IMG/VR virus record: IMGVR_UViG_3300021138_000017
Coordinates: 1 to 64,000 of that record
DNA from: a virus
Length of the DNA: 64,000 bases
Direction: 5' to 3' (one strand)
Position numbers and translations under genes: made by a program. The notes beneath the pieces are model-generated. The model saw only the letters and a list, made by a program, of their open reading frames with translations, was not told the origin of the DNA and did not search any database. Shown in pieces: positions 18,117-35,194 of the stretch (its first letter is position 1; every line of letters begins with the position of its first letter).

Positions 18117-18327
18117 ACCCTTAGACTTTTATTTAAAATGGTCAGCTAGTTTTGTAGCGTTACTACACGTTTATTTGGTAGCACACGACGTAACTCCATA
18201 TTATAAATTTTCCGGATTAACTGCCGCAATACTATGGGTATGGATCAGCATTTTATGGCGAGAACCCAGTTTAATATTATTAAATTTAATAATGATTGGC
18301 ATTTATATTAAAGGCTTACTGTTTTGA
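18106..18327 (+). CDS. small integral membrane protein
   Basis: three hydrophobic helices. Confidence 0.7.
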   Translation: MFNKPLDFYLKWSASFVALLHVYLVAHDVTPYYKFSGLTAAILWVWISILWREPSLILLNLIMIGIYIKGLLF

Positions 18328-19277: not shown

Positions 19278-20445
19278 TAAAATACATTATATTCCAACAG
19301 AGGAAGTAGAAAAAATAGTATGGAATGGCGATAGTGTTGAATATGATACAGCATTGTATGAATTAGGAAAAAACTACGATGAATTTATTGTTTTAAATCC
19401 AGCATTTTCCTTTTTGACACTAAAAGAAGAATTGCCTATCACTGCAGTAGTGGATAGTTGTATTACTTGGAAATATCAGGATTCATGGGTAGGAAAATAT
19501 TTTACAAAAAACTGGATCAACGAAAAACAATACCACGAAGTAAATCTAAATCTTATATGTAAAAAAAATGCCGCTTTTAAAAATATAAAGTTTAATGACA
19601 TTGCTGTTACTGATTTATATAATTTAAAATATCAAATGGTGTGGTACTTAGACAACAAATTTACAGAAGAAAAAATTTGGGTATACAAGTGCTATTTAGA
19701 AAATATAGAAACAAAAGGAACTAAATACATGGGATCCATAAGTCCTATAGACAGGTCAGCAAAAACCCCGGATGTTGTTTTTATCAGTTACAATGAAGTA
19801 AACGCCGAAGAGAATTGGCTACGTGTTTTAACTAAAGCACCCAATGCTAAACGTGTAAATGGTATCAAAGGTATTGTAAATGCCCATAAACAAGCTGCTG
19901 AACTATCTTCTACAGATATGTTTTATGTTGTCGATGGAGATGCTTACTTAACCGATGACTTCAATTTTGATTTTCAACCTGATATATTTAATAGAGAATG
20001 TGTTTATGTTTGGACTAGTCAAAATCCCATTAACAATTTAACCTATGGGTACGGCGGGGTAAAACTATTACCAAAAGATTTAGTACTTAAAGTAAACCAG
20101 TCTACAATAGACATGACTACAAATATAAGTCGCAAGTTTAAAATTTTTAATCAAGTAAGTAACATTACTAGATTTAACACAGATGAATTTAACACATTTC
20201 GTAGTGCGTTTAGAGAGTGTGCTAAGTTATCTTCTAGAATATTTTTACAAGAAGACTATTTAAAAAATAAAGAAAGATTAACAGTTTGGTGTACAGAAGG
20301 TTTTGATAAACCCTATGGTGAATGGGCTATCAAAGGAGCTTTAGCTGGCAAAAAATACGGTGAAGAAAATATCAATAATCCCGACAGTATTAGACTAATT
20401 AATAGTTTAGAATTTATAAAATTAAAATTTGAAGAGTTAATGTGA
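19249..20445 (+). CDS. glycosyltransferase-like (GT-A C-terminal domain)
   Basis: FISYNE..AHK.AA..VVDGD..YGYGG; paralog of 34259-35194. Confidence 0.7.
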   Translation: MTGLRKSITDKIHYIPTEEVEKIVWNGDSVEYDTALYELGKNYDEFIVLNPAFSFLTLKEELPITAVVDSCITWKYQDSWVGKYFTKNWINEKQYHEVNLNLICKKNAAFKNIKFNDIAVTDLYNLKYQMVWYLDNKFTEEKIWVYKCYLENIETKGTKYMGSISPIDRSAKTPDVVFISYNEVNAEENWLRVLTKAPNAKRVNGIKGIVNAHKQAAELSSTDMFYVVDGDAYLTDDFNFDFQPDIFNRECVYVWTSQNPINNLTYGYGGVKLLPKDLVLKVNQSTIDMTTNISRKFKIFNQVSNITRFNTDEFNTFRSAFRECAKLSSRIFLQEDYLKNKERLTVWCTEGFDKPYGEWAIKGALAGKKYGEENINNPDSIRLINSLEFIKLKFEELM

Positions 20446-21317
20446 TTAAAAAAATTATATACATCCTAGCATTTATTTTACCTTCGCTTACTTTAGCAGA
20501 AAATATAACAATTATTGTTCCGTTTTCTGCTGGGGGAGCGTTTGATATTATGGCAAGAAAAGTTGACTCTTTTCTACATAAGTTAAATTACGAAACAGTT
20601 GTAGTAGATATACCCGGAGCAGGTGGAGCTGTGGGTGTTACTAAATTACTTAATAGTCCGCCAAATACTTTGATGTTAACTAGCCCTTCAATTTATGTTG
20701 TAATGATTGAAAAAAATTTAGCATTGGATAATTTTAAAATAATATCAATTATGGGAGAAGTTCCGCAAATTTTAGCTGTACGCAAAGATCGCAATTTAAC
20801 TTGCGAAAAATTAAAAAACGATGATAAGACTTATTTTTTAGGGTCAGCTGGCAAGGATAGTCAAACATCTGTTCCTGTTTATTTTATCACAGAAAAGTAT
20901 AAACACTTTATCGAAGTTCCATATAAAGGAGCTAATCTTGCTTTATTGGATGTATTATCTGGACAAATAGATGGTGTTTTTCTTAATGGATATAGTAATC
21001 AATATAAAGAAATTGAATTTATAGCAAATAGTTCTCAAAAAGAATTTGATGGCATACCTTCACTGGAAAAATGTTTTGGAATTAAAAAATCTTTTGTAGG
21101 AGAATACCTACTGATAGCTAGTCCTAACAGCGATGAAAAGTTTATCAAAAACATGAATCAAATGATGATAAACTTTGCTAATAGCGATGAAGGTCAAACC
21201 TACTATAAACAAGTAGGAATAAAAAATACAGTTTCAGATTTAGCATCTACAACCAAAACTTTTAAAAATTCATATAATCTATGGAAACAAATTTTAAAAA
21301 ACAGGTACGAAAAATGA
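20442..21317 (+). CDS. Bug/TctC tripartite tricarboxylate transporter substrate-binding protein
   Basis: signal peptide; IIVPFSAGGAFD, PGAGG, VPYKG, DVLSGQID. Confidence 0.88.
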   Translation: MIKKIIYILAFILPSLTLAENITIIVPFSAGGAFDIMARKVDSFLHKLNYETVVVDIPGAGGAVGVTKLLNSPPNTLMLTSPSIYVVMIEKNLALDNFKIISIMGEVPQILAVRKDRNLTCEKLKNDDKTYFLGSAGKDSQTSVPVYFITEKYKHFIEVPYKGANLALLDVLSGQIDGVFLNGYSNQYKEIEFIANSSQKEFDGIPSLEKCFGIKKSFVGEYLLIASPNSDEKFIKNMNQMMINFANSDEGQTYYKQVGIKNTVSDLASTTKTFKNSYNLWKQILKNRYEK

Positions 21318-21376
21318 ATTTAAAGTATAAGACTAACTAGATCATACTAAATATTACATTATAGGAGAATAGCAAA

Positions 21377-21685
21377 ATGCCAGTTAAAGCAACCATAACA
21401 TCAGTTAAACCTTCAGGAGCACAATGGTTTTCAGACGTATCTGCCGAAAATGCCGCAATAGGAAAAAGTAATGTAGACTGGTCAAAAGAACAACCAGGAT
21501 TTATCAGCGTAACAACCACAAATCCTGATGAGAATACAAGAATTATAGAATATACGTTTGATACTGTAGAAAATTATACAGCATGGTTACAGGCAAGAAG
21601 TAATTTATCATCTTTTAAAACAGTTGCCGAATACCACACTAATAATAATTTTGTTACTGTTAGACACGAAACAATTAATCAATAA
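21377..21685 (+). CDS. small protein, possible dimeric alpha-beta barrel (ABM-like)
   Basis: TAAATA promoter and AGGAG RBS; QPGFIS..FDTVENYTAW pattern. Confidence 0.6.
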   Translation: MPVKATITSVKPSGAQWFSDVSAENAAIGKSNVDWSKEQPGFISVTTTNPDENTRIIEYTFDTVENYTAWLQARSNLSSFKTVAEYHTNNNFVTVRHETINQ

Positions 21686-21746
21686 ATCTATTGTATAGCC
21701 CTAAGTAAATTATAAATATGAACATGATTACCAGGTTCATAAAATA

Positions 21747-22988
21747 ATGTTTTTTTCTGAAGATCCAGAATTCACTAAACACGGCTACTATCAAATTAAC
21801 GATGTAAAAACTTTGAGTAAGTTTGAAGCTTATCAATTATCGGGAAAAGATTGGAGTAAAATTAAATTTATTTTCAACGATGAAATTTATGATCAATACG
21901 ATTGGACCGTTGAACCAGAAGAAGATATTTATGATTTATATTGCCAAAGAGCCCAGCAATTAAGAGAAAAATATGACTATCTTGTTTTAATGTATAGCGG
22001 AGGAGTTGATAGTCATACCGTATTAGAAACTTTTTTATTCAATAATATCAAATTAGACGAAGTATGTACTTTTTCTACGTCTGATTTTACTAAAAAATAT
22101 GACAAATTAAATCAAGAAGTTTTTAATTCGGCTATACCTTTTATCAACACATTAAATTTACATCAATTAGGTATAAATTTTAGAACGGTAGAGATAGGTC
22201 AATTAATCATAGACCAATGGGATGATGAATTCCATTTTGAAAATTTTCAATTTTACGCCAACAGTGCTCAATGGATTACTGTTTCTAGATCACATCAATT
22301 TAAATCTAAGATTAAAGAACACATGGATTTAATTGAAAAAGGAAAAACAGTTTGTTATATTTGGGGAGCAGATAAACCTAGTATACATATACAAGATAAT
22401 CAATATGTTTTTACAGTCAACGACGCTAGTATAGATTTTGGCACCAGGCAGTATGTTACTAGATCAATAATGAAAGATAATTTCTTTAATTTTTATGATG
22501 AAGCATTTTATATATCAAAAGATGCTCCAAAAATTTCTATTAAACAATCTCATTTATTAGTAAAATTAATGAAAACTATTCCTATAAGTGATTCTAGATT
22601 ACGGAAAAAAACAGAATTATCAAGTACAGGACCATTTGTTATTCATCACAAAATACAAAACATTCCTATTTATCTAAGTAAAAAGACAGTAGATGGTGCT
22701 ATATATCCAAAAGCAATATTGAGTAACTTTGGAGATGATAAATTATATAACTCTAGTTTAATACTTTCTCCCAAAGATAATTGGTTTTCTTTATCTAATC
22801 ACTCCAATCGTTGGAAATTTGAACAAAAAGTAAAAAATTTAATAAATGAAAATAGAAATTATTACAAATACGATCATTACGCTCCTAATTATAGACTTTT
22901 TAAACAGGAAGAATATAAAAATATTATTCCAAATCATGCCATGTATTTTTTTAGCAAATACCATGTGATTGGAGATATTGTACAGTAA
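21747..22988 (+). CDS. PP-loop (asparagine-synthase-like) ATP pyrophosphatase, subfamily A
   Basis: LMYSGGVDS; paralog of 25914-27122. Confidence 0.75.
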   Translation: MFFSEDPEFTKHGYYQINDVKTLSKFEAYQLSGKDWSKIKFIFNDEIYDQYDWTVEPEEDIYDLYCQRAQQLREKYDYLVLMYSGGVDSHTVLETFLFNNIKLDEVCTFSTSDFTKKYDKLNQEVFNSAIPFINTLNLHQLGINFRTVEIGQLIIDQWDDEFHFENFQFYANSAQWITVSRSHQFKSKIKEHMDLIEKGKTVCYIWGADKPSIHIQDNQYVFTVNDASIDFGTRQYVTRSIMKDNFFNFYDEAFYISKDAPKISIKQSHLLVKLMKTIPISDSRLRKKTELSSTGPFVIHHKIQNIPIYLSKKTVDGAIYPKAILSNFGDDKLYNSSLILSPKDNWFSLSNHSNRWKFEQKVKNLINENRNYYKYDHYAPNYRLFKQEEYKNIIPNHAMYFFSKYHVIGDIVQ

Positions 22989-24088
22989 TGAATATAGTTA
23001 TTTTAGATCCCCAAACTACTCATACCGATTTTATAGCTCAAAGTTTAGCAAAATATCATACTGTGTTTACTGAAATAGAAAACATAAACGTTAAAACTGA
23101 TCTTGTAATTCCCTTATTACACAACTACCAAATGCGTTTAAAATTTAGAGCTTGGATCAATAAATTGAAAATTCCTTGCTTAATGCCAAGTCTTGAAAAT
23201 TCTTATCTTGAATGGAGTAAAATTAAATCTAAACAACTTTTACTAGAATTGGGAATACCAACTCCTTCTTATAAAATATATACCACAGAAGATCTTTTAG
23301 TAAATTTTTATAATATTCCTAGACCGTTTGTATTAAAGTATGAACAAGATTTTAGGTTTGGGCTACAAACTATTATTATTACTGATGAAAACTATAAAGA
23401 AGAATATGAAAAATTAATAGCTAATGGATTAGAAAGAATAGAAATAATGAAATACAAAGGTCCATTTGTTAATTTGTTTATTGTAGAAGAATATATAAAT
23501 GGTGAAGAGGAAATATCATACCATGCTCTTTGTAATGAACATCAGTGGTCTTATTTAGGCTCTGCTAGAGATTACAAACGTAGATATGAAAATGATATAG
23601 GATACAACACAGACGGTATGGGGTCATATTCTATAGGAAATAATTATCCAATCATTGACCAATATGCCAATTCTATTATACAACACTTGAAATCACAAGG
23701 CAACCCGTATATGGGATTTTTTTATCTAGGAATAATTATTTCAAATGGTGTTCCATTTGTATTAGAGATAAATACAAGACCCGGCTGTCCAGAAATACAA
23801 TCTATTCTTCCAACTATAGATAACGAATTAGGAGATTTATTTTTATCGGTAGCAACCAATAAACCATTTGATATAAAGTTTAATGATAAAAAAGCAGTAA
23901 CAGTCCTTGTTCAAGGAAAATTAAAAAACAAACCAATAGATTTAATTTGTGGTTGTTCAAAAACTAGAGACGAGTTTACACTAACCGCTATAGACACTAC
24001 GATAACAAATGCTAGCGACAAAATTTACAATTATTTAAAATTGCTTGATAACTGCGAGTATAGAAAAGATATAGGATACCTTAAATAA
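22988..24088 (+). CDS. ATP-grasp ligase, diverged PurD/GAR-synthetase-like
   Basis: LEWSK..SK..L..LGIPT, IVEEYING, RDYKR..GYNTDGMG, LEINTRPGCPEIQ, YRKDIG. Confidence 0.8.
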   Translation: MNIVILDPQTTHTDFIAQSLAKYHTVFTEIENINVKTDLVIPLLHNYQMRLKFRAWINKLKIPCLMPSLENSYLEWSKIKSKQLLLELGIPTPSYKIYTTEDLLVNFYNIPRPFVLKYEQDFRFGLQTIIITDENYKEEYEKLIANGLERIEIMKYKGPFVNLFIVEEYINGEEEISYHALCNEHQWSYLGSARDYKRRYENDIGYNTDGMGSYSIGNNYPIIDQYANSIIQHLKSQGNPYMGFFYLGIIISNGVPFVLEINTRPGCPEIQSILPTIDNELGDLFLSVATNKPFDIKFNDKKAVTVLVQGKLKNKPIDLICGCSKTRDEFTLTAIDTTITNASDKIYNYLKLLDNCEYRKDIGYLK

Positions 24089-24149
24089 AAACTAACTACT
24101 ATATGAATCAAGTTATAACTTATTTGAAATTAACGGAATTATTTTAAAA

Positions 24150-24992
24150 ATGATTTTTAAAAACTATGCTGAAATTTTAGCCCACTATACTTCGGTAAAA
24201 AAAGGAAATTATGTTACTCCTGATTATATACTGAATAAACACAGCGATGGTATAAATTTATTTCGTAGATATTGTCCACATAGAATGTATCCTTTGGCCG
24301 ATGTAGGCAATACAGTAGAAAATATTGTGTGTAAATTCCACGGATTTGAGTGGGACAAAAATGGATCTCCGGTTAACAATGATCGTAAGATAAGTTGCGG
24401 TAAAGCAAAAATTGGAAAATCTGGATTAATATTTAAAAATTTTGTTGAACCAGATCACTACTGGGTAGATGATTTAGCAAAAGAAACTAATTTAGAGTAT
24501 AGCCATATTGAAACAGGTAAAAGTAACGGAAGTTGGCTATGGGCAATGGATATACAATCTGACCTGTTACATATTCGCAAAGGTGATGATGTTGTTCACC
24601 CAGGATTGTCTGCTGTTACTAATTTAGACGAATGCGAAATGGAACAAGGAGAAGGATGGATATTACAAACTTGTTCTACCGGCTGGTGGCTTTTTATATA
24701 TCCATATGCTTACGTTGAATGGAGTCCAGGCTGTTTAGCAATTAATAATCTCATACCAGATAATCCAGCAAGCGAATTTAAATTTGAATGGATAACACAG
24801 TATTATTATGACCCATCTGTGTCTTTGGAAAAACGCAAAGAATTTGAAACTTTAGAAGATGTGTTTAAAGAAGACATAGCTACCATTGAGTTACAAAAAG
24901 GTAAATATTTTCCTTTAGCCAAATCTACATGTAGATTAGAAGAACACTCTGTTTACTTTGGCGAGTGGGTAACTAAAAATCGCAGGGATTAA
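24150..24992 (+). CDS. Rieske non-heme iron oxygenase (alpha-subunit-like)
   Basis: CPHR..CKFHG Rieske motif; DLLH..VHP and ED..IE..Q mononuclear-iron motifs. Confidence 0.8.
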   Translation: MIFKNYAEILAHYTSVKKGNYVTPDYILNKHSDGINLFRRYCPHRMYPLADVGNTVENIVCKFHGFEWDKNGSPVNNDRKISCGKAKIGKSGLIFKNFVEPDHYWVDDLAKETNLEYSHIETGKSNGSWLWAMDIQSDLLHIRKGDDVVHPGLSAVTNLDECEMEQGEGWILQTCSTGWWLFIYPYAYVEWSPGCLAINNLIPDNPASEFKFEWITQYYYDPSVSLEKRKEFETLEDVFKEDIATIELQKGKYFPLAKSTCRLEEHSVYFGEWVTKNRRD

Positions 24993-24995
24993 ATT

Positions 24996-25910
24996 ATGAT
25001 AAGACACAATAATTGGATGTCATATAGCTTTGATGATGGATCAATAAATGGGGCCAAACCTAATATGTATTCAACATTCAAACTTCATTTCAAAAAGGGA
25101 CTAAAATATAAAACTATGTCTTACTATGATGCTTTATACTATAATGCTAGTGTAATGCGTGATGAGTTTTCGGAACCTTTTGATGTATTGCTATCAGGCG
25201 GAATTGATAGTGAAGTTGTTGTGAGAGTTTTTAAAGATTTAGGCATTAAACAAAATGTTTTTACTATTAGATTTGAAAATGATCATAATATACAAGATGT
25301 AGAAGCTGCCAAGAAAATTTGCGATAATATAGGTGTTGACTTAAAAATCATTGACTGGAATCTACAAAAGTTTTTTGAAAATGATGTTCAGGTAATGTTT
25401 GATAAAACATTTTGCCCTTATGTTGGAAGAATGTTACGGCATGCTTGGTTTGATTTACTTGACAATATTCCAGTTATGGCCGAGGGAGAACCGTATTGGA
25501 GACGAGAGCTACTTGAAGATTATACACAAAAGTCTGAATGGAAACTATGGTGGAGAGAAGATTATTTTACTGCCTCTATATACGGCAATACTGTAGGCAG
25601 AACCGTTATCACTGAATGGTACAATTATACTCCTGAAATAGTAATGAATTATCATCATTTACCTTTAGCCAAACAGTTGCTCAATGATGAATTTAAAGGA
25701 AAAATTAGTTGTTGGAGTAGTAGAATACCTATACATCAACACTTATGGCCTGATATATTACAAAGACCTAAAATGTACGGGTACGAAGGACCAAATCAAC
25801 CTGGGTACTGGCCCGAGTTTATTAGAACATTTGCCAATAATGTGTCACTCAAAGCATCTAACGAACTGTATAAATTTTCTGTATCTGAATTAGAAAACAT
25901 CTTTAACTAA
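24996..25910 (+). CDS. PP-loop ATP pyrophosphatase, subfamily B
   Basis: LLSGGIDSE; EWYNYTPE; paralog of 28541-29467. Confidence 0.75.
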   Translation: MIRHNNWMSYSFDDGSINGAKPNMYSTFKLHFKKGLKYKTMSYYDALYYNASVMRDEFSEPFDVLLSGGIDSEVVVRVFKDLGIKQNVFTIRFENDHNIQDVEAAKKICDNIGVDLKIIDWNLQKFFENDVQVMFDKTFCPYVGRMLRHAWFDLLDNIPVMAEGEPYWRRELLEDYTQKSEWKLWWREDYFTASIYGNTVGRTVITEWYNYTPEIVMNYHHLPLAKQLLNDEFKGKISCWSSRIPIHQHLWPDILQRPKMYGYEGPNQPGYWPEFIRTFANNVSLKASNELYKFSVSELENIFN

Positions 25911-25913
25911 ATT

Positions 25914-27122
25914 ATGTTTTTTGAAAACGATATTGACTTTGTCAAATTTGGATACTATCAAGTTGATAATATAAAAACTTTTAGCAAGTTTGAAGCTTAT
26001 CAATTTGCTAAAGGAGACATGAGTAAAATTCAATTTATATTTAATGACGATATTATGTCTCAATATGATTGGACGATAGAGCCCGAAAAAGATATTTACG
26101 AACTGTACGCTGAAAGGGCTAGACAAATACGTAACAAATATGACTATCTAGTATTATTGTACAGCGGCGGTATAGATAGCCACACAGTATTAAAATCATT
26201 TTTAGACAATAATATACACCTAGATGAAATTTTTACATTTACTAATGCCAAAGTAGAATCAACAACAGGTAAATTTAATCAAGAAGTTTTTAATGCCGCT
26301 ATTCCATTTGTAAGTTCTCTTAATCTTGTCAAACTGGGAACCAAGTTTAGACTATTTGATATTAGCGATTTAATTATTAATATGTATCAAGACGATTTTG
26401 TCGTTGAAAATTATCATTTGTATAATCAAGGTCCTGCCAATAACTGGACTAGCGCCATAAGATCTCATGTACTTAAATCTAAAGTAGAAGATCATTTAAA
26501 ATTAACAGAACAAGGCAAAACTGTTTGTTATATATGGGGTTTTGATAAACCCTTTTTACGATTCGATAATAATAAATATTCTATTTCTTTTATAGATGCT
26601 TGTATTGATTTAAATATGAGACAATTTATAAACAAAAAAACGTTTATATCTAAATTCGCAAACTTTTTCGATGAAGCATTTTACACCTGCCGAGAATTTC
26701 CAGAAATATCTATTAAACAAGGTCATTTGCTATTGAAATTAATTAAAACCATCAAACCTACTGATAAAATATTACGATTTAAAGAAGAAATTCCAACTAT
26801 TGGACCATTTGTAATACATCATTACAAAGAACAGTATAAATTTTTACCAAAAAATCTAGTCGATGCCGCAATTTATCCAGAGGCAAATTTACTACAATTT
26901 GGCGATGATAAAACTAAAGGTAGTATTATTATTCCGCAAAAAGATAAATGGTTCACTAGTTCTAATCATGATAATCAAAAAAGATGGTTTCAAAATTTTA
27001 ATAATTTAATAAAACAAAATAAAAACTTTTATGTATTTCGAAACAATGAAGTTATGAATATAAAGAGCATTTTTAGTAAACAGTATTGTATAGGTGAATA
27101 CAATCCTTTTGAGAATACCTAA
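25914..27122 (+). CDS. PP-loop ATP pyrophosphatase, subfamily A
   Basis: LLYSGGIDS; collinear with 21747-22988. Confidence 0.75.
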   Translation: MFFENDIDFVKFGYYQVDNIKTFSKFEAYQFAKGDMSKIQFIFNDDIMSQYDWTIEPEKDIYELYAERARQIRNKYDYLVLLYSGGIDSHTVLKSFLDNNIHLDEIFTFTNAKVESTTGKFNQEVFNAAIPFVSSLNLVKLGTKFRLFDISDLIINMYQDDFVVENYHLYNQGPANNWTSAIRSHVLKSKVEDHLKLTEQGKTVCYIWGFDKPFLRFDNNKYSISFIDACIDLNMRQFINKKTFISKFANFFDEAFYTCREFPEISIKQGHLLLKLIKTIKPTDKILRFKEEIPTIGPFVIHHYKEQYKFLPKNLVDAAIYPEANLLQFGDDKTKGSIIIPQKDKWFTSSNHDNQKRWFQNFNNLIKQNKNFYVFRNNEVMNIKSIFSKQYCIGEYNPFENT

Positions 27123-27124
27123 GA

Positions 27125-27703
27125 TTATTCAATAAGCATAAAACTTTTCATATTGCTTTTCCACACTGACTCACCTTTATTAGTTAAGTAATGCGTCATT
27201 ACCAATTGCTTACAACTCTCGGGTACAGGATATAATGACCCGCAGACATTATATCTAGTTGACTCCATAGCAAAGTCTGTGTTAGTATTAATTTTAATTA
27301 ACTTTAGGTACTCTGTAAAGCCTCGCAAATTATATTCTCTGCTGATAAACACACAATCTAACTTTTTTATTTTTGCCATAGCCAACTGAAATGGTAAACA
27401 GTATGTAGTGTTTAAAAATTTATCTCCTCCACTAAACTTACCAGAATGGCGATAGTCTGGATGTATCCACATTCTAGTACTACATCTACCGATACCTTTT
27501 CCCCATCGTTCTTCGTTTATTTCCAAGGCACTGAAGCAGACAATTTTGTCATCAATAGTTACCACTGGAAAAGATGCGTAGTTTCTAGGGTTTAGATTGA
27601 TGTAATTGTTTTTTAATTTATCTTTAGAATTTTCAATGTAGTCTTGACAATTATTCCATAAATCTTGGTCGAAACTACTAGCATAATCAACTATTTTAAT
27701 CAT
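27125..27703 (-). CDS. GNAT-fold acyltransferase-like (start corrected to 27703)
   Basis: IVCFSA..RMWIHPDYRH motif A-like; TAAATA-N7-ATG. Confidence 0.6.
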   Translation of the reverse strand: MIKIVDYASSFDQDLWNNCQDYIENSKDKLKNNYINLNPRNYASFPVVTIDDKIVCFSALEINEERWGKGIGRCSTRMWIHPDYRHSGKFSGGDKFLNTTYCLPFQLAMAKIKKLDCVFISREYNLRGFTEYLKLIKINTNTDFAMESTRYNVCGSLYPVPESCKQLVMTHYLTNKGESVWKSNMKSFMLIE

Positions 27704-27729
27704 TGTTTGATATTTACTTAAATATTTAA

Positions 27730-28560
27730 ATGCAAAAAATAAATTCATTCCTTTACTACATACTGTATCCTGTCCATCTAATTGCGTGGATAGGATTAGC
27801 AGTTTATCTCACATTTTTTAATTTTACATTTATAAACTTAATAGAACTAACAATTGGTTGGATTTTAATCGAAGGATTAGGAGTAGCGGTTATACTACAT
27901 CGTTATGTAAGCCATCGATCAGTAGAAATAAAACCCATACTCAAACCTGTGTTATTATGGTTAAGTTGTTTAAGCCTACAAGGCAGTCCGCTAGGTTGGG
28001 CGGCAGTACATAGAGGAAGTCATCATAGATACAGCGATACTGAAAAAGACGCACATTCTCCATCTAAAGGAAAATTGTATGCTTGGCATACATGGCTACA
28101 TGATTGGGATAGATATTTCAATCCAAAATATGTCATTGACTTAATTAAAGATCCTATTCATTTATGGTTTGCTAAACACTATAACTGGGTGATATTTTTC
28201 ACTTATGCTGTAGTTGGTGTAATTTCTTGGCAGTTACTTTTATTTGGGTTTATAATTCCGGCAGCTATCAGTTTGTATATGGAAAGTAATATTAATGTTT
28301 TTTGTCATACCCCAGGACAAGGATACAGAAATTTTGATACTAAAGATAATAGTCAAAATGTTCCATTGCTTGCTTGGATTACCTGGGGACAGGGGTGGCA
28401 CAATAATCATCATGCTAAAGCTAGTTCATACGATTTTGGAACTTCAGTTAGTGGCAAACCATACGAATGGGATTTTAGTTTAATATTTTTACCATTAATT
28501 GCTACAAAAGAAAGTAGACAAGCCATTTTAAACAATAGAAATGCTGTTCACTCACAATAA
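27730..28560 (+). CDS. membrane fatty-acid (delta-9-like) desaturase
   Basis: His boxes HRYVSH, HRGSHH, HNNHH; DAHSP; TM helices. Confidence 0.92.
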   Translation: MQKINSFLYYILYPVHLIAWIGLAVYLTFFNFTFINLIELTIGWILIEGLGVAVILHRYVSHRSVEIKPILKPVLLWLSCLSLQGSPLGWAAVHRGSHHRYSDTEKDAHSPSKGKLYAWHTWLHDWDRYFNPKYVIDLIKDPIHLWFAKHYNWVIFFTYAVVGVISWQLLLFGFIIPAAISLYMESNINVFCHTPGQGYRNFDTKDNSQNVPLLAWITWGQGWHNNHHAKASSYDFGTSVSGKPYEWDFSLIFLPLIATKESRQAILNNRNAVHSQ

Positions 28561-29467
28561 TCATTTAACCTATAGCGTAGGAAACAAAGAATATGGCTAT
28601 AGAGATAATTCTGTTGAACGGTATTCTGTAAATTTAGGGCAAGTTGATTTAGATAGATATTCTAAAAGCTCTTATGCAAATGAATTACATAGAACAGCAA
28701 AATTAGTAAATCAAGATTTAGGAAATGATCTAGTGCTGTTTTTATCAGGCGGAACTGACAGTGAAATAGTTTTACGTAATTTTGTTCATAATGGTTTCAA
28801 ACCCAGATGTATTGTTCTCAAGTTTGAAAATAACTACAATATAACCGAAGTTAAAGAAGCACATGAAATCGCGCAGGCGCTTGACGTAAAATTAGAAACT
28901 GTTGACTTTAATGTACATGAATTTTTTTATTCAGGAGAAGCTATAGAGTTCGGGGAACAAATACAGTGTACTCAACTTACGTATCTTATGATTTATAATA
29001 GTATTTTAAAATTAGGTACTCCTGCGGTTATGGGAGGAGAAGCCTTATTAACACGCTATGTTAATCAGACTGATAGCTATTGGTATTATACGTTTAGAGA
29101 AAACGAGGATGCCAGTGCCATACGTTTTTCTAATAAATTTAATATACCGTTAGTTAATGAGTGGTTCAGTTACACTCCTGAACTCTTACTATATTATTTA
29201 GAACATCCTAGTATAAAAAGACTAGTTTCAGAAAAATATAATTACAAAATAACTTCTGTTAGCAGTAAAAACTCTATACTAAATGAATTGTATCCTGGTA
29301 CTAGAACAAAAAATAAAAAACACGGATTTGAAAGTTTATTGGCATTTAATAATCTAGCTTACGAAGATATTGGTAAAAATCAAATACCACGATTAGAATT
29401 TAGCTTGGATGGAATACCCTATAGTCAAGCAATACTAAACTTAAAAGGTTTCTATGAAAGTTGTTGA
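28541..29467 (+). CDS. PP-loop ATP pyrophosphatase, subfamily B
   Basis: FLSGGTDSE; EWFSYTPE; KHGFE. Confidence 0.75.
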   Translation: MLFTHNNHLTYSVGNKEYGYRDNSVERYSVNLGQVDLDRYSKSSYANELHRTAKLVNQDLGNDLVLFLSGGTDSEIVLRNFVHNGFKPRCIVLKFENNYNITEVKEAHEIAQALDVKLETVDFNVHEFFYSGEAIEFGEQIQCTQLTYLMIYNSILKLGTPAVMGGEALLTRYVNQTDSYWYYTFRENEDASAIRFSNKFNIPLVNEWFSYTPELLLYYLEHPSIKRLVSEKYNYKITSVSSKNSILNELYPGTRTKNKKHGFESLLAFNNLAYEDIGKNQIPRLEFSLDGIPYSQAILNLKGFYESC

Positions 29468-30023
29468 ACTAACTAACGAACACGAGGTTTCTATTAGACA
29501 CTTGTTTAACAAAAATCAATCTGTATTCGATGATCAAAACAGTGCTGAATTTTTAGAATACAAAATATTTTTAGAAACATATTTGTCAAATTTATCTAGA
29601 TATAAAGCATTTGGTTTAGAAGATAGCAGTGGTATGCTATTAGGTTTGATATCTTTTTATATTAGCCATAACGAACCAGTTTGGTATATTACTACACTTC
29701 GTTCAACAAATAATAAAATCATTGGACCTATCTTAATAGAAGCTGTTATAAAATATAATGAAGAATACGGTAGGTATAGATTTTATACATTGTTGCCAAC
29801 AAAATACAGTAAATTTTTAAGAAAATTTGTATTCAGCAAAAATATCAAAGAAAGATATGAGTACATTGATGAATGTTTAGTGCCAGCAAAAACTAAGTGT
29901 ATCTATCAAAATTTTTGGAATATACTTTTCAACAGAACGTTGTCTCTTGAAGACAATATAGTTAGATGTACATATCTAAAACAAGAATATAGAAAAAATA
30001 TACCTATTGGTGGGAATTTATAA
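29454..30023 (+). CDS. GNAT-fold protein
   Basis: LLGLISF..WYIT..IGPILIEAVIKY pattern. Confidence 0.5.
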   Translation: MKVVELTNEHEVSIRHLFNKNQSVFDDQNSAEFLEYKIFLETYLSNLSRYKAFGLEDSSGMLLGLISFYISHNEPVWYITTLRSTNNKIIGPILIEAVIKYNEEYGRYRFYTLLPTKYSKFLRKFVFSKNIKERYEYIDECLVPAKTKCIYQNFWNILFNRTLSLEDNIVRCTYLKQEYRKNIPIGGNL

Positions 30024-30625
30024 TGATGGTAAGCCCGTACAAATTATTTGAATCTACGTTGAATTGCTATAAAATCAATAGTAATGAGGAATTAGGCAAC
30101 ACCTTACGCGAGTTTTTTAATCAACCAACAAACGACTATCTTTGGAAATTATCAACTCATAGACAAACAGTTACCCACGCCTTAAGGAATACAGAAACAA
30201 TACATTTGAGACACTTGGAACATTTTCCTAAAAACTTTGATACACTACAACTAAATCAACTTATGGAAGTAAAACAATCTCTACTAGCGGAAATAGCTGT
30301 ATTTAAAAAAGCTGTAAATTGGTTTGAAGAAGTTTTAATGAACACAGGCGCAAACACAGTAGAATTAGGTAGGATTTTTATTAGCAAGTTGTCTCCAAAT
30401 TCTAAAGTTGATCTTCATACGGATGAAGGAAATTATTTTAGCTATTATGACAGATTTCATTTTACAGTTACTGCCGCTGTAGATAATATATTTTCTATAC
30501 AAGACAAAAACTATACTTTAGAACAAGACTCTTTATACTGGGTTAACAATCATGTTCCGCATTGGTTAGAAAATAAAAGTAAATTTGGTAGAATAAATTT
30601 TATTGTAGACGCTAGACTATCATGA
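30023..30625 (+). CDS. Asp/Asn beta-hydroxylase-like Fe/2OG oxygenase
   Basis: LHTDEG..RFH..VNNHVPH..N..RINFIVD. Confidence 0.8.
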   Translation: MMVSPYKLFESTLNCYKINSNEELGNTLREFFNQPTNDYLWKLSTHRQTVTHALRNTETIHLRHLEHFPKNFDTLQLNQLMEVKQSLLAEIAVFKKAVNWFEEVLMNTGANTVELGRIFISKLSPNSKVDLHTDEGNYFSYYDRFHFTVTAAVDNIFSIQDKNYTLEQDSLYWVNNHVPHWLENKSKFGRINFIVDARLS

Positions 30626-31506
30626 ACATTGAAAATATATATGATACATGGGGATCTATAATTTATTTAGATTCGCCAGAAGAATTTTTTACTATGGACA
30701 AAGATTATTGGAGAAATTTAATATATGCCCGTAAACTTATAATTTTTAAAAAAGTAAACTTTACAAAAACACAATACGCTGAATTTAGTTTTCACTTTGG
30801 AAGTCCTTGGAAAATAGAAGACTATCGATATTCTAAAGAATGGGCAGAAATTGTAAACACCAAATATGGTAATCAAATTATCAGTCCTTTCAGTAACGAA
30901 CTTATTAAAAAAATACCTCCAGAGTTTATGCCTTGGCATGCTGATATACCAAATAGACAGTTCAACCCTTTTCCTTTTAGAAGTTTATGGATAACCAGTA
31001 ATCCAAATCCTGACAATTCAGGTCAAACTATATGGATGAATTTAGAAGAATCATTTGACTATCTTACAGATGAAATGAAGGAACTAATACCTAAAGTTAC
31101 AGTAGTACAGCAAAGTTGGTATGAGCCAGGAAAAGATATACAAGAATTTCCTTTAATAAAAATTCATCCTATTACCAAAACAAAATCTTTACGATTAAAT
31201 CATTATAATTGGGGGTTAAACAAATCTGCTTGGATAATTGATGTAAAGATAAACAATGTTTCTCAAAAAAATTGTGCTCTTATTAAAGAGTATCTAGACT
31301 ACCTGGAAAGAATAAACAAATTAAAATACCAACATCGTTGGGATTTATATGACATAGCACTGTATGATAATTATTCGTTCGTTCACGCTAGAACTGCTTT
31401 AAACTTTGACAACAATAATAGCATAAGACATTTTTATAGAATCAATATAGATCATCTCGATGATAAAGAATGGCATAATCATAAAACCCAATATTTTAAT
31501 TTATAA
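30622..31506 (+). CDS. TauD/clavaminate-synthase-family dioxygenase
   Basis: WHAD, GQT, HPITK, HRW..DIALYDN..VHAR..R. Confidence 0.85.
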   Translation: MNIENIYDTWGSIIYLDSPEEFFTMDKDYWRNLIYARKLIIFKKVNFTKTQYAEFSFHFGSPWKIEDYRYSKEWAEIVNTKYGNQIISPFSNELIKKIPPEFMPWHADIPNRQFNPFPFRSLWITSNPNPDNSGQTIWMNLEESFDYLTDEMKELIPKVTVVQQSWYEPGKDIQEFPLIKIHPITKTKSLRLNHYNWGLNKSAWIIDVKINNVSQKNCALIKEYLDYLERINKLKYQHRWDLYDIALYDNYSFVHARTALNFDNNNSIRHFYRINIDHLDDKEWHNHKTQYFNL

Positions 31507-31508
31507 AT

Positions 31509-32762
31509 ATGTCTATGCTAAAAAAAGTAATACCAATTAGTTCTACCGTCTGTGCTGTTCCTTGGATGCATCTTAATTTTGAACCTAGTGGTAAAGTAAT
31601 TACTTGTTGTCTCACTAGTAGTTTTCAAGCACACTTGGGCGACTTAAAGTCGCAGTCAATTGAAGAAATTTGGAATAGTGATAAACAAAAATCTATACGC
31701 AAGGATATGATAGAAGGTAAGGAACCTGGAGTATGTTCTAAGTGCTTTGACAGAGAACGAGTCACAGGAGAAAGTGGTAGGGTTTATCATAACAGAGATT
31801 TTCCTGAAGTAATAGAGTCTATACCCGATATTACCTTAGAAGATGGTACGTGTACAACAATGGATTTAAAATACTGGGATTTTAGATTTAGTAATATTTG
31901 TAACTTCAAATGCCGTAGTTGTGGTCCAAGATACAGTAGTGCTTGGGTACCTGATGCTAAAAAATTAGGATATACTGATCAAGAAAAAGTTTGGACAATA
32001 GATAATATTGATGATAAAACTAACTATGATTTTCTCGAAGATCAAATTGACACAGTAAAAAGAATTTATTTTGCCGGAGGCGAACCGTTACTAATGCCTG
32101 AACATTGGCAAATACTAGATATGCTCGTTGAAAAGAAAAGATTTGATGTTAAACTTTCTTACAACACTAATTGTTCGGTGTTAGAATATAATAAAAAAAA
32201 TATCATTGATTATTGGAGCCAGTGGCAATCTGGTAAGTTAGAAATTTGGCCCAGTATTGACGAAATTGGAGAAAGAGCAGAACTCATTCGTTCTGGAACA
32301 GTATGGTCTACTGTAGATAGCAATCTTAAAAAATTAGTTCTTATAGAAAAAGCTCTTATACGTCCTCATATTACAGTAGCGGCATGGAATGTTCATAGAC
32401 TTCCTGAAATTATTGAGTATTTTATTAGTGTAGGTGTCATAAGCGAAAAATGGCGTTATCAAAATTTTTACTTAAATTTACTAGAATATCCACAATATTA
32501 TAATGTGCAAATACTATCAGACGAATTTAAAAAAGCTACTATAACTAAACTACAGTCCTTTATTGAAGATTATAATAAAAAATATAATGTTGACATAAAC
32601 TATTTGTTTAAATATACTCTACATGAATTAGAAAAACCACACAATGAATCTCTAGCTAGAAAATTCCTAAGTATGACAAACAGTATAGACATTGTAAGAA
32701 ACGAAAAATTACTCGATGTAGTAACAGAATTACAACACTTAAAAGACCAATATGAAAATTAA
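31509..32762 (+). CDS. radical SAM enzyme with N-terminal SPASM/twitch domain
   Basis: CAVPW..CC..IWNS..CSKC; CNFKCRSC; FAGGEP. True start may be 31515. Confidence 0.9.
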   Translation: MSMLKKVIPISSTVCAVPWMHLNFEPSGKVITCCLTSSFQAHLGDLKSQSIEEIWNSDKQKSIRKDMIEGKEPGVCSKCFDRERVTGESGRVYHNRDFPEVIESIPDITLEDGTCTTMDLKYWDFRFSNICNFKCRSCGPRYSSAWVPDAKKLGYTDQEKVWTIDNIDDKTNYDFLEDQIDTVKRIYFAGGEPLLMPEHWQILDMLVEKKRFDVKLSYNTNCSVLEYNKKNIIDYWSQWQSGKLEIWPSIDEIGERAELIRSGTVWSTVDSNLKKLVLIEKALIRPHITVAAWNVHRLPEIIEYFISVGVISEKWRYQNFYLNLLEYPQYYNVQILSDEFKKATITKLQSFIEDYNKKYNVDINYLFKYTLHELEKPHNESLARKFLSMTNSIDIVRNEKLLDVVTELQHLKDQYEN

Positions 32763-33723
32763 TAAAATTTTTAGAGATTTATCTAGACCCAGCTATTTTT
32801 GTGTAGACTGGATGCTACACGATCGTTGTACTTACGACTGTAGCTATTGTCCACCGAGTAACAAAAGTGGAACTGATAGTTGGCTGACTTTAGACACACT
32901 AGATGAATTTTGCGATGGATTAGATCGTCATGTTCAAACTGTCAATCCTGATATGCAAATACACATAATATTCTCAGGAGGTGAGCCCACTGTATGGCGT
33001 GATTTCAGTGAGCTAGTAGATAGAATGGCAGCTAGAAGGTGGGCTATGAGTTTGAACAGTAATGGATCAAGAAGCCTTAGATGGTGGCAGGAAAATGCTC
33101 ATAAATTTGTAAAAATATATTTAAGTTATCACACAGAACAAGTTAATGATGAAGATTTTTTAGAAAAAGTAAAAGTTTGTGAAGAACACACAGTTGTAGG
33201 AGTAAACGTAATGATGAATCCTGATCCTGAACGATTCGAACAAGCTATAAGATTTACAGAAAGATTGCGTACAGAAACTGAAAAATGCCACTATGCCCAT
33301 CACCAAATACAATATAACTTTGGTAATACTGAAATAAAAGTTCCGCAATATACAGAAGAACAAAAACTTACTATTCTTAACTTAAAACACAGATGGACTC
33401 CTAAATATAATTTATCAAAATATGACAGTAATCATATGATGGAATATGAGGATGGAACTAAAAGTCATTTCAATGGATTACAATTAATAAAAACTAATCA
33501 AGCTAATTTCCAAGGTTGGGAATGTGCAGCAGGACTAGAGGGTATTTGGATTAGTGCTAGAGGAGAAATTATGCGTGGTACTTGCCACGTTAGTGGCCTT
33601 TTAGGTAATATACTTGAACCTGACAAAATTCAATGGCCTACCGAAACTGTTACTTGTCCGTATGCGTGGTGTGGCTGTTTGCCTGACATGTTAAATACAA
33701 AAACTCGTCCTCAAAATGTTTAA
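32752..33723 (+). CDS. radical SAM enzyme with C-terminal Cys cluster
   Basis: CTYDCSYC, SGGEPT, CAAG..C..CPYAWCGC. Confidence 0.9.
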   Translation: MKINKIFRDLSRPSYFCVDWMLHDRCTYDCSYCPPSNKSGTDSWLTLDTLDEFCDGLDRHVQTVNPDMQIHIIFSGGEPTVWRDFSELVDRMAARRWAMSLNSNGSRSLRWWQENAHKFVKIYLSYHTEQVNDEDFLEKVKVCEEHTVVGVNVMMNPDPERFEQAIRFTERLRTETEKCHYAHHQIQYNFGNTEIKVPQYTEEQKLTILNLKHRWTPKYNLSKYDSNHMMEYEDGTKSHFNGLQLIKTNQANFQGWECAAGLEGIWISARGEIMRGTCHVSGLLGNILEPDKIQWPTETVTCPYAWCGCLPDMLNTKTRPQNV

Positions 33724-34258
33724 CCAAGACGCTTTCAGCAATGGACAAATAGACAGTAAACTATGGTTATGTAGAGAATTAGAATCCTTAGAATGGTCTA
33801 GTGATTATACTCAAATATATGGCGGATGGTATGGGGTTCTTGCTTTTTTACTACTAAGTCGAGAAAAATTTTGTGTAGGTCGTATTGAAAGTTTTGATAT
33901 AGACCCTACTTGTGAACATATAGCCGACATGATTAATGAAAACTGGGTAATAAAGGAATGGCGATTTAAAGCGTTTACTTTAGACTGTAGTAAAGGTGTT
34001 AGAGGTAATCCTGACTTAATAATTAATACCAGTAGCGAACATTTTAACAATACAGAATGGTTTGATAATATTAGACCAGGAACTCGTGTTATTATACAAG
34101 GAAACAATATGCCGCACGAGGATCATTTTGTACATACCAATACTCTGGAAGATTTTGTTAGGCAGTATCCTTTGTCAGAAATAGCGTATAAAGGATCTTT
34201 AGAATTTAAATACCCTGATTGGATTTTTACAAGATTTATGCTGATTGGTACAAAATAA
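33716..34258 (+). CDS. class I SAM-dependent methyltransferase-like
   Basis: IYGGWYG, FDIDP, INTSSEH. Confidence 0.65.
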   Translation: MFNQDAFSNGQIDSKLWLCRELESLEWSSDYTQIYGGWYGVLAFLLLSREKFCVGRIESFDIDPTCEHIADMINENWVIKEWRFKAFTLDCSKGVRGNPDLIINTSSEHFNNTEWFDNIRPGTRVIIQGNNMPHEDHFVHTNTLEDFVRQYPLSEIAYKGSLEFKYPDWIFTRFMLIGTK

Positions 34259-35194
34259 TTACCAACCTTCTATTTCTCGTATAACATCCATTTCAGTTAC
34301 CATTACTCCTTTGTTTTTTCTATCAATCATATAATAATTTTTGAAAAACTTACTGGATTTTTCGTCTAACATAATAATAGGCAAATCAAGTTGATTGTGT
34401 AAGTCTGGACTTATTCTTCCTGCGATTATTTCTGGGTTGTGTCCATCGATAGTATCATAGATTTTCTTTAGTGCATCAAAATCTCTAACTTCTCTGTAAT
34501 CCCAAGCTGAGTTAAGCATAGTCATATACGTGCCCATTCTGGAACCCAACATTGACCAAATGCCATTTTCAACGTCACGCCCAACATTATGCCAAATACT
34601 TAGATTATCTAAATTCCTTTTGTGTGCTTGCTCTTTAAAACTTGCTACAGATGGCTTCACACCTCGATTCAAACACATTTTTACGCCTTCTCTAAATCCT
34701 GCACGCCAGGCTTGAAATGGACTGGCATTTATGTAAGTAGTAGAATAACAGTCGTACATGGCAATGTATTTAGGATCAAAACAAAATTCAACAGTGGTTT
34801 CGTCATCACCAGCAGAAGATTCGTGTGTTCGCATGTTATAAACAAATTCTTTGGTCCAGCAACTTAGACCGCCGTTTCCATATAGTAAACCATTTGTATT
34901 ATTACGTGCTTTCCAACGAAATACATGAGTAGAATTTAAGTCATTTAATATTAATTGTTTATTAAAAAAATCTTCATCAGGAATATTATCTCCGTCAATT
35001 AAAATAAATCTATCAGTATCACTAGCGTCTGCGGCTGCTTTGTGCGCGGCGTCTGATCCTTTAACTCCGTCAACCCTAGTAGCCCAAGGTATCATGTTAT
35101 GTATTTTTACCCAATTCTCTTCTTTGTTTGGTTCGTCGTAACTCAAGTATATTACGTCTAATGTATCTATATCTATAATTGTTTGATTATTCAT
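34259..35194 (-). CDS. glycosyltransferase-like (GT-A)
   Basis: YLSYDE..AHKAAA..LIDGD..YGNGG. Confidence 0.7.
   Translation of the reverse strand: MNNQTIIDIDTLDVIYLSYDEPNKEENWVKIHNMIPWATRVDGVKGSDAAHKAAADASDTDRFILIDGDNIPDEDFFNKQLILNDLNSTHVFRWKARNNTNGLLYGNGGLSCWTKEFVYNMRTHESSAGDDETTVEFCFDPKYIAMYDCYSTTYINASPFQAWRAGFREGVKMCLNRGVKPSVASFKEQAHKRNLDNLSIWHNVGRDVENGIWSMLGSRMGTYMTMLNSAWDYREVRDFDALKKIYDTIDGHNPEIIAGRISPDLHNQLDLPIIMLDEKSSKFFKNYYMIDRKNKGVMVTEMDVIREIEGW

Follow-up and report, generated by a model that had tools for sequence, protein, structure and literature searches.

A putative composite accessory island with a predicted TctC-type binding protein and asparagine synthetase-like PP-loop enzymes in an uncultured freshwater jumbo phage

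Phage accessory genes boost phosphate uptake and redirect central metabolism, and it is already known in general that phages have variable accessory islands near their fibre genes and can encode binding proteins. The locus described here raises the question of what a phage would do with a solute-binding protein joined to a long run of ligase-like enzymes, oxygenases and radical SAM (S-adenosylmethionine) enzymes, and whether such a run serves one pathway. It lies at positions 20442-34258 of the IMG/VR record IMGVR_UViG_3300021138_000017, a fragment of 76.6 kb of which the first 64 kb were analysed (referred to as the window). An earlier note, made from the sequence alone, had seen here a single coherent pathway of 14 kb. 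Comparison with related phages indicates a composite accessory island in a variable region beside the baseplate/fibre genes. Our tentative preference, to which we give somewhat less than an even chance, is that organic-acid uptake and amidation are encoded beside an acyl/lipid tailoring block and a variable radical SAM cassette.

The island comprises 16 open reading frames (ORFs) of 102-417 amino acids (aa), 15 on the plus strand and one (27125-27748) on the minus strand. Its four PP-loop enzymes are named A1, A2, B1 and B2, and the genes are as follows.

20442..21317, plus strand: Bug/TctC-type solute-binding protein from the family of tripartite tricarboxylate transporters (TTT), 291 aa (PF03401, PDB matches, signal peptide)
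21377..21685, plus strand: 102-aa protein with no recognised fold (AGGAG ribosome-binding site; TAAATA 29 nt upstream)
21747..22988, plus strand: A1, 413 aa, glutaminase-less asparagine synthetase-like PP-loop enzyme (SGGVDS)
22988..24088, plus strand: PurD-like ATP-grasp ligase, 366 aa (GARS_A 7.7e-22, 78.5 bits)
24150..24992, plus strand: Rieske non-haem-iron oxygenase of the short, alpha-only type (Rieske 5.9e-8)
24996..25910, plus strand: B1, 304 aa, short PP-loop enzyme (SGGIDS)
25914..27122, plus strand: A2, 402 aa, paralogue of A1 (SGGIDS)
27125..27748, minus strand: GNAT-fold acyltransferase-like protein, 207 aa, which starts the conserved middle block (AlphaFold2 pLDDT 90)
27730..28560, plus strand: membrane delta-9-type (stearoyl-CoA desaturase-like) di-iron desaturase, 276 aa (FA_desaturase, PF00487, 2.5e-14, 54 bits)
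28541..29467, plus strand: B2, 308 aa, short PP-loop enzyme (SGGTDS)
29454..30023, plus strand: second GNAT-fold protein, 189 aa (GNAT clusters of the ESM Atlas matched by structure, TM 0.60-0.75)
30023..30625, plus strand: AspH/LpxO-family cupin 2-oxoglutarate (2OG) oxygenase, 200 aa (PF05118 8e-7, 29.5 bits; LHTD...PHW)
30622..31506, plus strand: TauD/TfdA-family 2OG dioxygenase, 294 aa (PF02668 2.2e-16, 61 bits; WHAD...VHAR)
31509..32762, plus strand: radical SAM enzyme with N-terminal twitch/SPASM domain (NF033640; CNFKCRSC)
32752..33723, plus strand: second radical SAM enzyme, 323 aa, with Cys-rich C-terminus (PF04055 5.6e-9; CTYDCSYC)
33716..34258, plus strand: 180-aa protein of no recognised family, which travels with 19249/34259-type genes

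The junctions overlap or measure 2-3 nt, only three true gaps (59, 61 and 61 nt) being left, and 191 of the 13,817 bases are non-coding. It could be supposed that all 16 genes make one acyl-amide or pseudo-peptide product, with the TctC protein as receptor or precursor scavenger. Gaps in the run are few and its genes point almost all the same way, lake metagenomes from 2012 to 2018 contain the whole island without change, and several amide-forming enzymes accompany many oxygenases, as in the E-64 (PMC12568646) and phevamine (PMC6187163) pathways, which are independent of nonribosomal peptide synthetases (NRPS). We nevertheless regard a single cluster as improbable in view of the relatives.

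The 177-kb relative G002 has the same frame as the island site, with flanking genes that are 60-79% identical and an order of ThyX, epimerase, the island, the 180-aa gene, the 34259-type gene, the 35187-37250 genes, 43517, 44479 and the giant virion protein. The site retains, at 42-77% aa identity, the GNAT of 27125 (64%), the desaturase (77%), B2 (66%), the GNAT of 29454 (42%), the AspH-like (63%) and the TauD-like (58%) oxygenase, together with a radical SAM section larger than that described here; it is devoid of TctC, the 102-aa gene, A1, ATP-grasp, Rieske, B1 and A2 (20442-27122), and the A-TctC pair of G002 stands about 10 kb upstream of the site, before a CobS-like gene. G003, a 321-kb phage (92% complete), has A genes, TctC, B and Rieske without the desaturase and the 27125-type GNAT, that is, the gene types of the first part of the island without those of the second. 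A very close relative, L011, whose flanks are 90-99% identical, carries a differing TctC (32% identity) and A (63%) at the island site. For a wider comparison 80 viral loci were collected with an alignment of A homologues as 20-kb windows around A genes; all ORFs were clustered, neighbours were named by Pfam and HH comparisons, and linkage was counted within two genes. The TauD-like gene occurs in one of these 80 A-centred loci (L068) and at the G002 site, and homologues of the second radical SAM enzyme occur in few loci.

The comparisons with G002, G003 and L011 divide the island into three parts: (i) a mobile module at 20442-27122, (ii) a separately inherited block at 27125-31506 that stays at the site, and (iii) a variable radical SAM cassette at 31509-34258. 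The single coherent pathway of the earlier note is only partly borne out: sub-modules are tightly linked, but the full set is not co-inherited, as G002 and G003 demonstrate. Independent assortment of the genes and degeneracy of catalytic residues had been named beforehand as findings that would overturn that proposal. The outcome for the former lies in between, the sub-modules co-occurring tightly and the full set not, and the latter fails since motifs checked gene by gene are intact across the island. Separately, the A genes of G003 stand at four places, the PP-loop families being expanded and dispersed in some jumbo phages; at G003:C1:272821-275395 (L087) a Rieske gene is followed by three tandem B genes.

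The centre of module (i) is formed by A1 and A2, which are 50% identical (blastp 7e-141), their DNA being 74% identical at the 5' ends. The best VIA matches of the A1 AlphaFold2 model (pLDDT 85) were ASNS, beta-lactam synthetase, carbapenam synthetase (CarA), TsnB9 and AsnB (Z 8.2-10.6 over 230-286 residues), with lower values for generic PP-loop enzymes (Z 6-7); Foldseek returned generic PP-loop matches only. A1 and A2 had no match to Pfam, NCBIfam (including PF00733 and TIGR01536) or PHROG, and the A profile none to PDB sequences at E<=1. They start with MFFSEDPEF (A1) and MFFENDIDF (A2), possess no N-terminal Cys and match no Gln-amidotransferase family. As judged from the model, the A enzymes fold like the synthetase half of asparagine synthetase without the glutaminase domain.

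The B enzymes (B1 and B2, 27% identical) are shorter relatives of A, the two families being connected with an HH probability of 96.6. B1 matched PF00733 (Asn_synthase; 1.8e-6, 28.3 bits) over 70 residues, and QueC and NAD_synthase over the PP-loop only; TIGR01536 gave 31 bits against a cut-off of 267. B2 matched QueC (1.6e-4), and the B profile found NadE, NMN synthetase and TtuA in the PDB at 4e-7 to 2e-6. The SGGxDS motif is kept in all four PP-loop proteins. A role in NAD salvage (nicotinate or quinolinate uptake by the Bug protein followed by NadE-like amidation) was considered and is not supported: B resembles NadE over the PP-loop half only, and the upstream genes in T4-like loci encode Hsp20, homing endonuclease, RNase H, gp46/47 and UvsX, with no NadV or PncB among them.

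The synthetase domains of the class-II asparagine synthetase group (AsnB 1ct9, human ASNS 9b6c, beta-lactam synthetase 1jgt, carbapenam synthetase 1q15, TsnB9 7ylz) share SGGxDS and the fold with A. By analogy, the chemistry to be expected for A would be theirs, i.e. carboxylate adenylation followed by amide or lactam formation. Unlike these enzymes, A has no glutaminase domain or Cys nucleophile and no Pfam/NCBIfam model or PDB sequence match; it has about 400 aa with 60 N-terminal residues of its own, has been found in viral sequences only and is genomically tied to solute-binding proteins.

The TctC protein of module (i) scored 27.0 bits against PF03401, exactly at the cut-off of 27, and matched TTT/Bug binding proteins of the PDB at 8e-14 to 6e-9 over residues 22-287, which make up the whole mature protein. 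Its N-terminus, MIKKIIYILAFILPSLTLA/EN, reads by eye as a Sec-type signal peptide. Signal peptide-like N-termini occur in 48 of 48 phage TctC homologues and not in the A enzymes, so that TctC is predicted to be exported to the periplasm, in a cell compartment different from that of A. TctA (PF01970) had no match in the 76.6-kb record or in four large relatives (together G000-G004), TctB not having been searched for; by this search the TctC of this phage appears to be an orphan binding protein.

The association of TctC with A is very tight. Single-sequence searches of IMG/VR and of GenBank phages with A1 gave no match, relatives being reached only by the family alignment. In the loci gathered in this way TctC is linked to A in 48/48 genes, the binding protein DctP of the tripartite ATP-independent periplasmic (TRAP) transporters in 11/11 loci and the TctA permease in 7/7 loci, with a divergent TctC-like gene within two genes of TctA in six of these seven. 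After deduplication, a transport component is linked to A in 44 of 63 loci. Adjoining A/TctC pairs are co-directional in 41 of 44 cases, typically with a 4-nt overlap. Every TctC, DctP and TctA in the 20-kb windows adjoins A, and none stands elsewhere in them. ATP-grasp homologues are linked to A in 4/5 loci; desaturase is linked to B in 10/11 and Rieske to B in 7/7 loci, and these two linkages are unaffected by A-centred sampling. AspH-like cupins, N-twitch and B12 radical SAM enzymes and, in some loci, AdoMet decarboxylase recur near A, and A loci are embedded in T4-type replication genes (gp46/47, UvsX, RNase H). The view of TctC as receptor or scavenger put forward in the earlier note is strengthened, because relatives have TctA or TRAP DctP at the same place beside A.

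The TctA-bearing loci are L050 (IMGVR_UViG_3300002144_000388; three copies), L040, L043, L057, L059, L062 and L065, where TctA stands with divergent TctC-like proteins (clusters c141 and c92), desaturases and an A gene. A small AdoMet decarboxylase gene (SpeH-type, PF02675 3.6e-16) lies within the B-Rieske-desaturase module of L003, L005, L007, L008 and L010 and is absent from the window; it hints at a polyamine link. The 102-aa gene has homologues beside TctC/A in L011 and L075 only (three loci with the present one), and its product matched no Pfam, NCBIfam, PHROG or PDB sequence even at E<=10.

The ATP-grasp protein matched PurD of the PDB at 1e-23. Its identity as the PurD equivalog was rejected, TIGR00877 giving 126 bits against a cut-off of 288 and the window containing no pur genes. 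In the Rieske protein the cluster ligands C42, H44, C61 and H64 and a candidate iron site D138, H141, H150 and D242 (2-His-1-carboxylate) are invariant across nine homologues; the iron site is a putative assignment because the two His are spaced by 8 residues, the usual spacing being 4.

With these elements the following route may be proposed. The orphan Bug/TctC protein would bind an organic acid in the host periplasm and hand it over to a host TctAB permease; some relatives would bring their own TctA, or TRAP DctP instead of TctC. In the cytoplasm a carboxylate would be activated as its adenylate by A1, A2 and the shorter B1, which would then join it in amide linkage to ammonia or an amine. 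The formation of a further amide, by way of an acyl-phosphate, would be the task of the PurD-like ATP-grasp enzyme, and hydroxylation or demethylation that of the Rieske oxygenase. Block (ii) would tailor an acyl- or lipid-like carboxylate, leading to either a fatty acyl-amide or an envelope lipid; this role is suggested because the membrane delta-9-type desaturase stands beside a B enzyme and two GNATs. The sequences themselves show which genes and folds are present, that motifs are intact, that export signals exist, how tightly genes are linked and that the modules are inherited separately; docking on host TctAB, a functional link between the island modules and, by analogy, carboxylate activation and amide formation by the island enzymes are what we infer.

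The likely host is compatible with such a route. A tmRNA gene at 3943-4372 (plus strand), called by ARAGORN as well, with tag peptide, is of the betaproteobacterial two-piece (permuted) type (RF01850 110 bits, RF04321 109 bits) and represents unusual cargo. On account of this beta-type tmRNA (110 bits) the host is probably betaproteobacterial. No group is richer in Bug proteins than the betaproteobacteria. The usual TTT arrangement in such bacteria is that orphan Bug binding proteins share a few TctAB permeases (PMC5812351, PMC5994714). The likeness to known TTT systems (TctCBA; the Bordetella Bug proteins, TphC, AdpC) lies in the Bug/TctC protein with signal peptide and in its orphan status; unlike them, the present system is phage-encoded, has no TctA in the record and keeps TctC always beside a cytoplasmic PP-loop enzyme (48/48). 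The cyanophage PstS offers a precedent, being a phage binding protein that plugs into a host permease (bioRxiv 10.1101/2021.07.20.453049). As PstS uses the host PstCA, so the phage would here, as we propose, supply the periplasmic binding protein only and rely on the host permease; it would differ from PstS in belonging to the TTT/TRAP and not to the ATP-binding cassette type, in taking up an organic acid and not phosphate, and in being coupled to a dedicated converting enzyme.

The E-64 route, in which an acid passes through an ATP-grasp enzyme, an amide synthetase and a 2OG oxygenase with no NRPS (PMC12568646), is a precedent for the proposed chemistry. Both the E-64 and the phevamine A (PMC6187163) pathway join a dicarboxylic or amino acid to amines by means of an ATP-grasp enzyme and a second amide synthetase, with Fe/2OG tailoring. 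In contrast to those pathways, there is no sequence orthology and the island genes are not inherited as one cluster. Dapdiamide is a further NRPS-independent amide natural product.

Several points weigh against the uptake-and-amidation reading. The assignment of A as a carboxylate-adenylating amide synthetase is an analogy from the fold match, and there are PP-loop enzymes whose substrates are tRNA, nucleotides or cofactors. As no TctA was found in the record or in the four large relatives, transport would depend on an unproven host partner. Module (i) is tied to modules (ii) and (iii) only by adjacency in one phage. Since the loci were gathered around A, the statistics for genes near A are partly built in. 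Cognate co-evolution of A and TctC is not supported: their distances are correlated (Mantel r 0.80), but a within-locus control gave 9/17, which equals chance. Lastly, the epimerase, a possible glycosyltransferase and the fibre neighbours fit a role in the envelope or host recognition equally well.

The last point leads to the flanks of the island and to block (ii). The flanking genes are the following.

18324-19277, plus strand: NAD-dependent sugar epimerase/dehydratase, left flank (Epimerase 1.8e-42)
19249-20445, plus strand: 398-aa diverged paralogue of the 34259 gene, left flank (33% over 211 aa, 2e-24)
34259..35194, minus strand: 311-aa conserved gene, right flank, with invariant D67-G-D69 (DGD motif)

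The 19249 and 34259 paralogues thus bracket the island on both sides. The 34259 protein has no Pfam or PDB match and at least 8,000 homologues, the closest among the matches listed being 67-78% identical and standing on contigs of up to 364 kb. It is probably core to the phage clade, marking the end of the variable island, and no cargo. G002 holds a 541-aa version of this gene. Beyond it, two minus-strand genes at 35738-36469 and 36453-37253 encode weak paralogues (27% over 147 aa), one matching phrog_1903 and the other having a DADY motif, which may be glycosyltransferase-like.

In block (ii) the GNAT fold of 27125 is evident from its model, with 141 Foldseek PDB matches at E<=1e-3, all GNATs; its family counts at least 199 proteins at 53-76% identity on contigs of up to 338 kb. 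Neither GNAT-fold protein has a Pfam match, and HH comparisons did not link 27125, 29454, c85 and c74 to one another. The desaturase carries three His boxes (HRYVSH, HRGSHHRYSD, HNNHH) and hydrophobic N-terminal and central segments as read from the sequence. The HxD/E...H iron triads are kept in the AspH-like and TauD-like oxygenases; the TauD-like protein matched PlaO1, AtsK and TfdA of the PDB at about 2e-5, and AspH-related cupin clusters (c6, c30, c78) recur near A/TctC.

AsnB homologues include the uronamide-forming WbpS/WbtH-type and the meso-diaminopimelate-amidating LtsA-type enzymes, and PF05118 includes the lipid hydroxylases LpxO and OlsC. The island could accordingly be read as a device for remodelling the envelope or a glycan, serving to recognise the host or to exclude superinfection. 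Acidic sugars or carboxylates of peptidoglycan or lipids would be amidated by the AsnB-like enzymes, lipid A or aminolipids would be altered by the AspH/LpxO-like enzyme together with the desaturase and the GNATs, and a glycan would be assembled by the epimerase and the putative glycosyltransferases. The position of the island fits, between a sugar epimerase and DGD-motif paralogues and near possible GT8-like paralogues and baseplate/fibre genes, a layout like the 'host recognition cluster' of T4-like pelagimyophages with its glycosyltransferases and radical SAM cassettes (PMC7029224). So does block (ii), which is the part kept at the G002 site and in which the desaturase is membrane-bound and the AspH family covers lipid hydroxylases. 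We hold envelope remodelling to be unlikely all the same, since it leaves unexplained the tie of A to binding proteins and permease subunits of two uptake systems. No glycosyltransferase family or PDB sequence supports such an identity for 19249 and 34259, even at E<=10, and 34259, being highly conserved in the clade, does not count as cargo of the island. Enzymes for lipid A, O-antigen or peptidoglycan precursors were not recognised either.

Module (iii) brings radical SAM chemistry. The first enzyme scored 359 bits against NF033640 (2.7e-107, cut-off 170), and members of its N-twitch family, frequently more than one per locus, occur in 22 of 81 loci. The second matched the STM4011 family at 3.8e-17, under the cut-off. 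CxxxCxxC is kept in both. G002 carries, in the corresponding position, a copy (69% identical) of the 180-aa gene that ends the module, and further copies stand in L004 and L080; the product of this gene matched no family or PDB sequence even at E<=10.

Lasso cyclases are AsnB homologues as well. The AsnB-type fold of A, the twitch/SPASM radical SAM enzymes and the AspH family could therefore suggest a modification of phage or host proteins like that of ribosomally synthesized and post-translationally modified peptides (RiPPs), with AsnB-like enzymes forming side-chain amides or isopeptide rings, radical SAM/SPASM enzymes cross-linking Cys-rich fibre proteins and AspH hydroxylating Asp/Asn. A putative fibre gene for 1,959 aa lies only 3 kb away. 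This appears very improbable. With 191 non-coding nt the island has almost no room for a precursor, and no precursor-like small gene was recognised besides the 102-aa ORF, which accompanies A in three loci only. The putative fibre gene is missing from the G002 site, which retains the enzymes, and the tie to exported binding proteins and permeases would be left unexplained. The putative fibre ORF (37618-43497, minus strand) is a stretch of 49% GC, the rest of the window having 30-35%; in G002 the 37250-type and 43517-type genes are neighbours at the syntenic site.

The gene calls of the earlier note can now be judged together. The nearly gapless run was confirmed, and so were its Bug/TctC protein (PF03401, PDB Bug/TTT matches, signal peptide), its four amide-ligase-like PP-loop enzymes (SGGxDS and the A1 fold match to AsnB-type synthetase domains), its ATP-grasp and Rieske enzymes (GARS_A and Rieske family matches), its two GNATs at the level of fold (Foldseek for 27125, ESM Atlas for 29454), its delta-9-like desaturase (PF00487 and SCD-like His boxes, as far as sequence can tell), its AspH-like and TauD-like dioxygenases (PF05118 and PF02668 above cut-off, iron triads) and its two radical SAM enzymes (NF033640, PF04055, CxxxCxxC). 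Two calls are without support, 'ABM-like' for the 21377 protein and 'methyltransferase' for the 33716 protein, both of which have no family or PDB match. As for the alternative of virion-protein or host-envelope hyper-modification, no precursor gene was recognised for its RiPP/virion part, and its envelope part ranks as a rival. The note had also recognised no standard auxiliary-metabolism set here; A and TctC are indeed without match in GenBank phages, but the gene set is less alien than claimed, because AspH-like, speH, stearoyl-CoA desaturase and radical SAM cassette genes are listed for T4-like pelagimyophages (PMC7029224).

The same list bears on whether the genes have any common purpose. 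They could be independent accessory genes without a shared substrate: a desaturase for membrane fluidity, 2OG oxygenases, radical SAM enzymes and a nutrient-binding protein. Hypervariable regions of T4-like aquatic phages collect speH, stearoyl-CoA desaturase, AspH and radical SAM cassettes (PMC7029224), and the modules move independently. The linkages are, however, far tighter than random (TctC-A 48/48, DctP-A 11/11, desaturase-B 10/11, Rieske-B 7/7) and come with translational-coupling overlaps, which makes unconnected cargo improbable as well. The island does belong to the hypervariable type, standing beside structural genes with a content that is swapped in G002 and L011 despite 60-99% identical flanks. 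It resembles the host recognition clusters of pelagi-/cyanomyophages in being a variable island by baseplate/fibre genes with sugar enzymes, radical SAM and AspH-like genes (PMC7029224). In freshwater relatives speH and stearoyl-CoA desaturase genes occur, and the accessory genes listed for pelagimyophages include radical SAM cassettes that adjoin fibre genes (PMC7029224). The text of that paper has 0 occurrences of asparagine or 'tripartite tricarboxylate' ('TctC', 'PP-loop' and other spellings were not searched for). Unlike the pelagimyophages (130-165 kb), the present phage is a PA5oct/Atu_ph07-like jumbo.

This placement derives from several genes. The CobS-like ATPase of the record is 50% identical to that of PA5oct-group phages, and relatives of a baseplate wedge/tail-pin protein and of a 4,909-aa virion protein occur in PA5oct, Atu_ph07 and Phosso; the structural (baseplate/fibre) genes occupy 37.6-64 kb of the window, beside the island. 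CheckV estimates a completeness of 22%, from which a genome of about 350 kb follows for the 76.6-kb fragment. By its sequence relationships the phage is an uncultured freshwater jumbo myophage of roughly that size. Each of the 30 bins between 17000 and 36999 is covered by four independent lake/freshwater metagenome runs (2012, 2016), mostly at >=99% identity. The island therefore belongs stably to an actual phage population and is no chimera or assembly artefact.

As to expression, TAAATA, a candidate promoter element of the earlier note, lies upstream of each of the three genes preceded by a true gap, at distances of 29, 34 and 68 nt. The full T4 late motif TATAAATA has four sites in the window against 16.7 expected from shuffles, so it is depleted and too rare to test late-promoter use; two of the four are inside the island, at 21711 and 31502. 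RNA folding of the three gaps was no better than in shuffles (z +0.8 to -1.0), and an Rfam scan gave no match inside the island. Elsewhere in the window, tRNA genes were called at 8987-9079 and 9344-9419 (plus strand), the calls being a 93-nt tRNA-Ser whose anticodon, ACT, is odd, and a tRNA-Asn(GTT).

The A family is large and, as far as sampled, appears from sequence searches to be restricted to viruses. It numbers 1,572 clusters at 50% identity (E<=1e-3; 1,304 at E<=1e-10), its Atlas clusters are 100% viral, and full-length BFVD matches to A are annotated only as 'uncharacterized protein, uncultured Caudovirales'. TctC and A had no tblastn match in 50,697 GenBank phage records. The sole 'bacterial' matches to A are phage contigs inside one uncultured Polynucleobacter metagenome-assembled genome (MAG), and in 300 other genomes of its Burkholderiales-type order the family was found 0 times. 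These contigs, L083 and L084 (CAYVBV010000073.1, CAYVBV010000045.1), are T4-like phage DNA of 47% GC with UvsX, A, DctP, four AspH-like genes and a B12 radical SAM gene; they represent either bin contamination or a host clue.

Such a distribution allows a wider reading, according to which aquatic giant phages 'import and trap' organic acids through virus-only A ligases and exported TTT/TRAP binding proteins, forming amides, and block (ii) would here extend the products to the fatty acyl-amide type. We regard this as doubtful. If true, the resulting amides may include phage metabolites not seen before, such as signals, toxins, anti-defence compounds or nitrogen stores.

In the literature searched on phage TctC, N-terminal SPASM enzymes and related themes we found no description of an A-TctC module, that is, of a phage organic-acid uptake component hard-wired to a putatively amide-forming family confined to phages. 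The '14-kb cluster' is a mosaic that should not be read as a single pathway, and its modules have to be taken separately. The A family has no characterised member among its 1,572 clusters, and one annotation would extend to thousands of proteins. If the proposed chemistry is true, large freshwater phages would make infected cells take up and convert dissolved organic acids, the flow of carbon and nitrogen in lakes would be affected, and new small molecules and new ligase chemistry could come to light in these phages.

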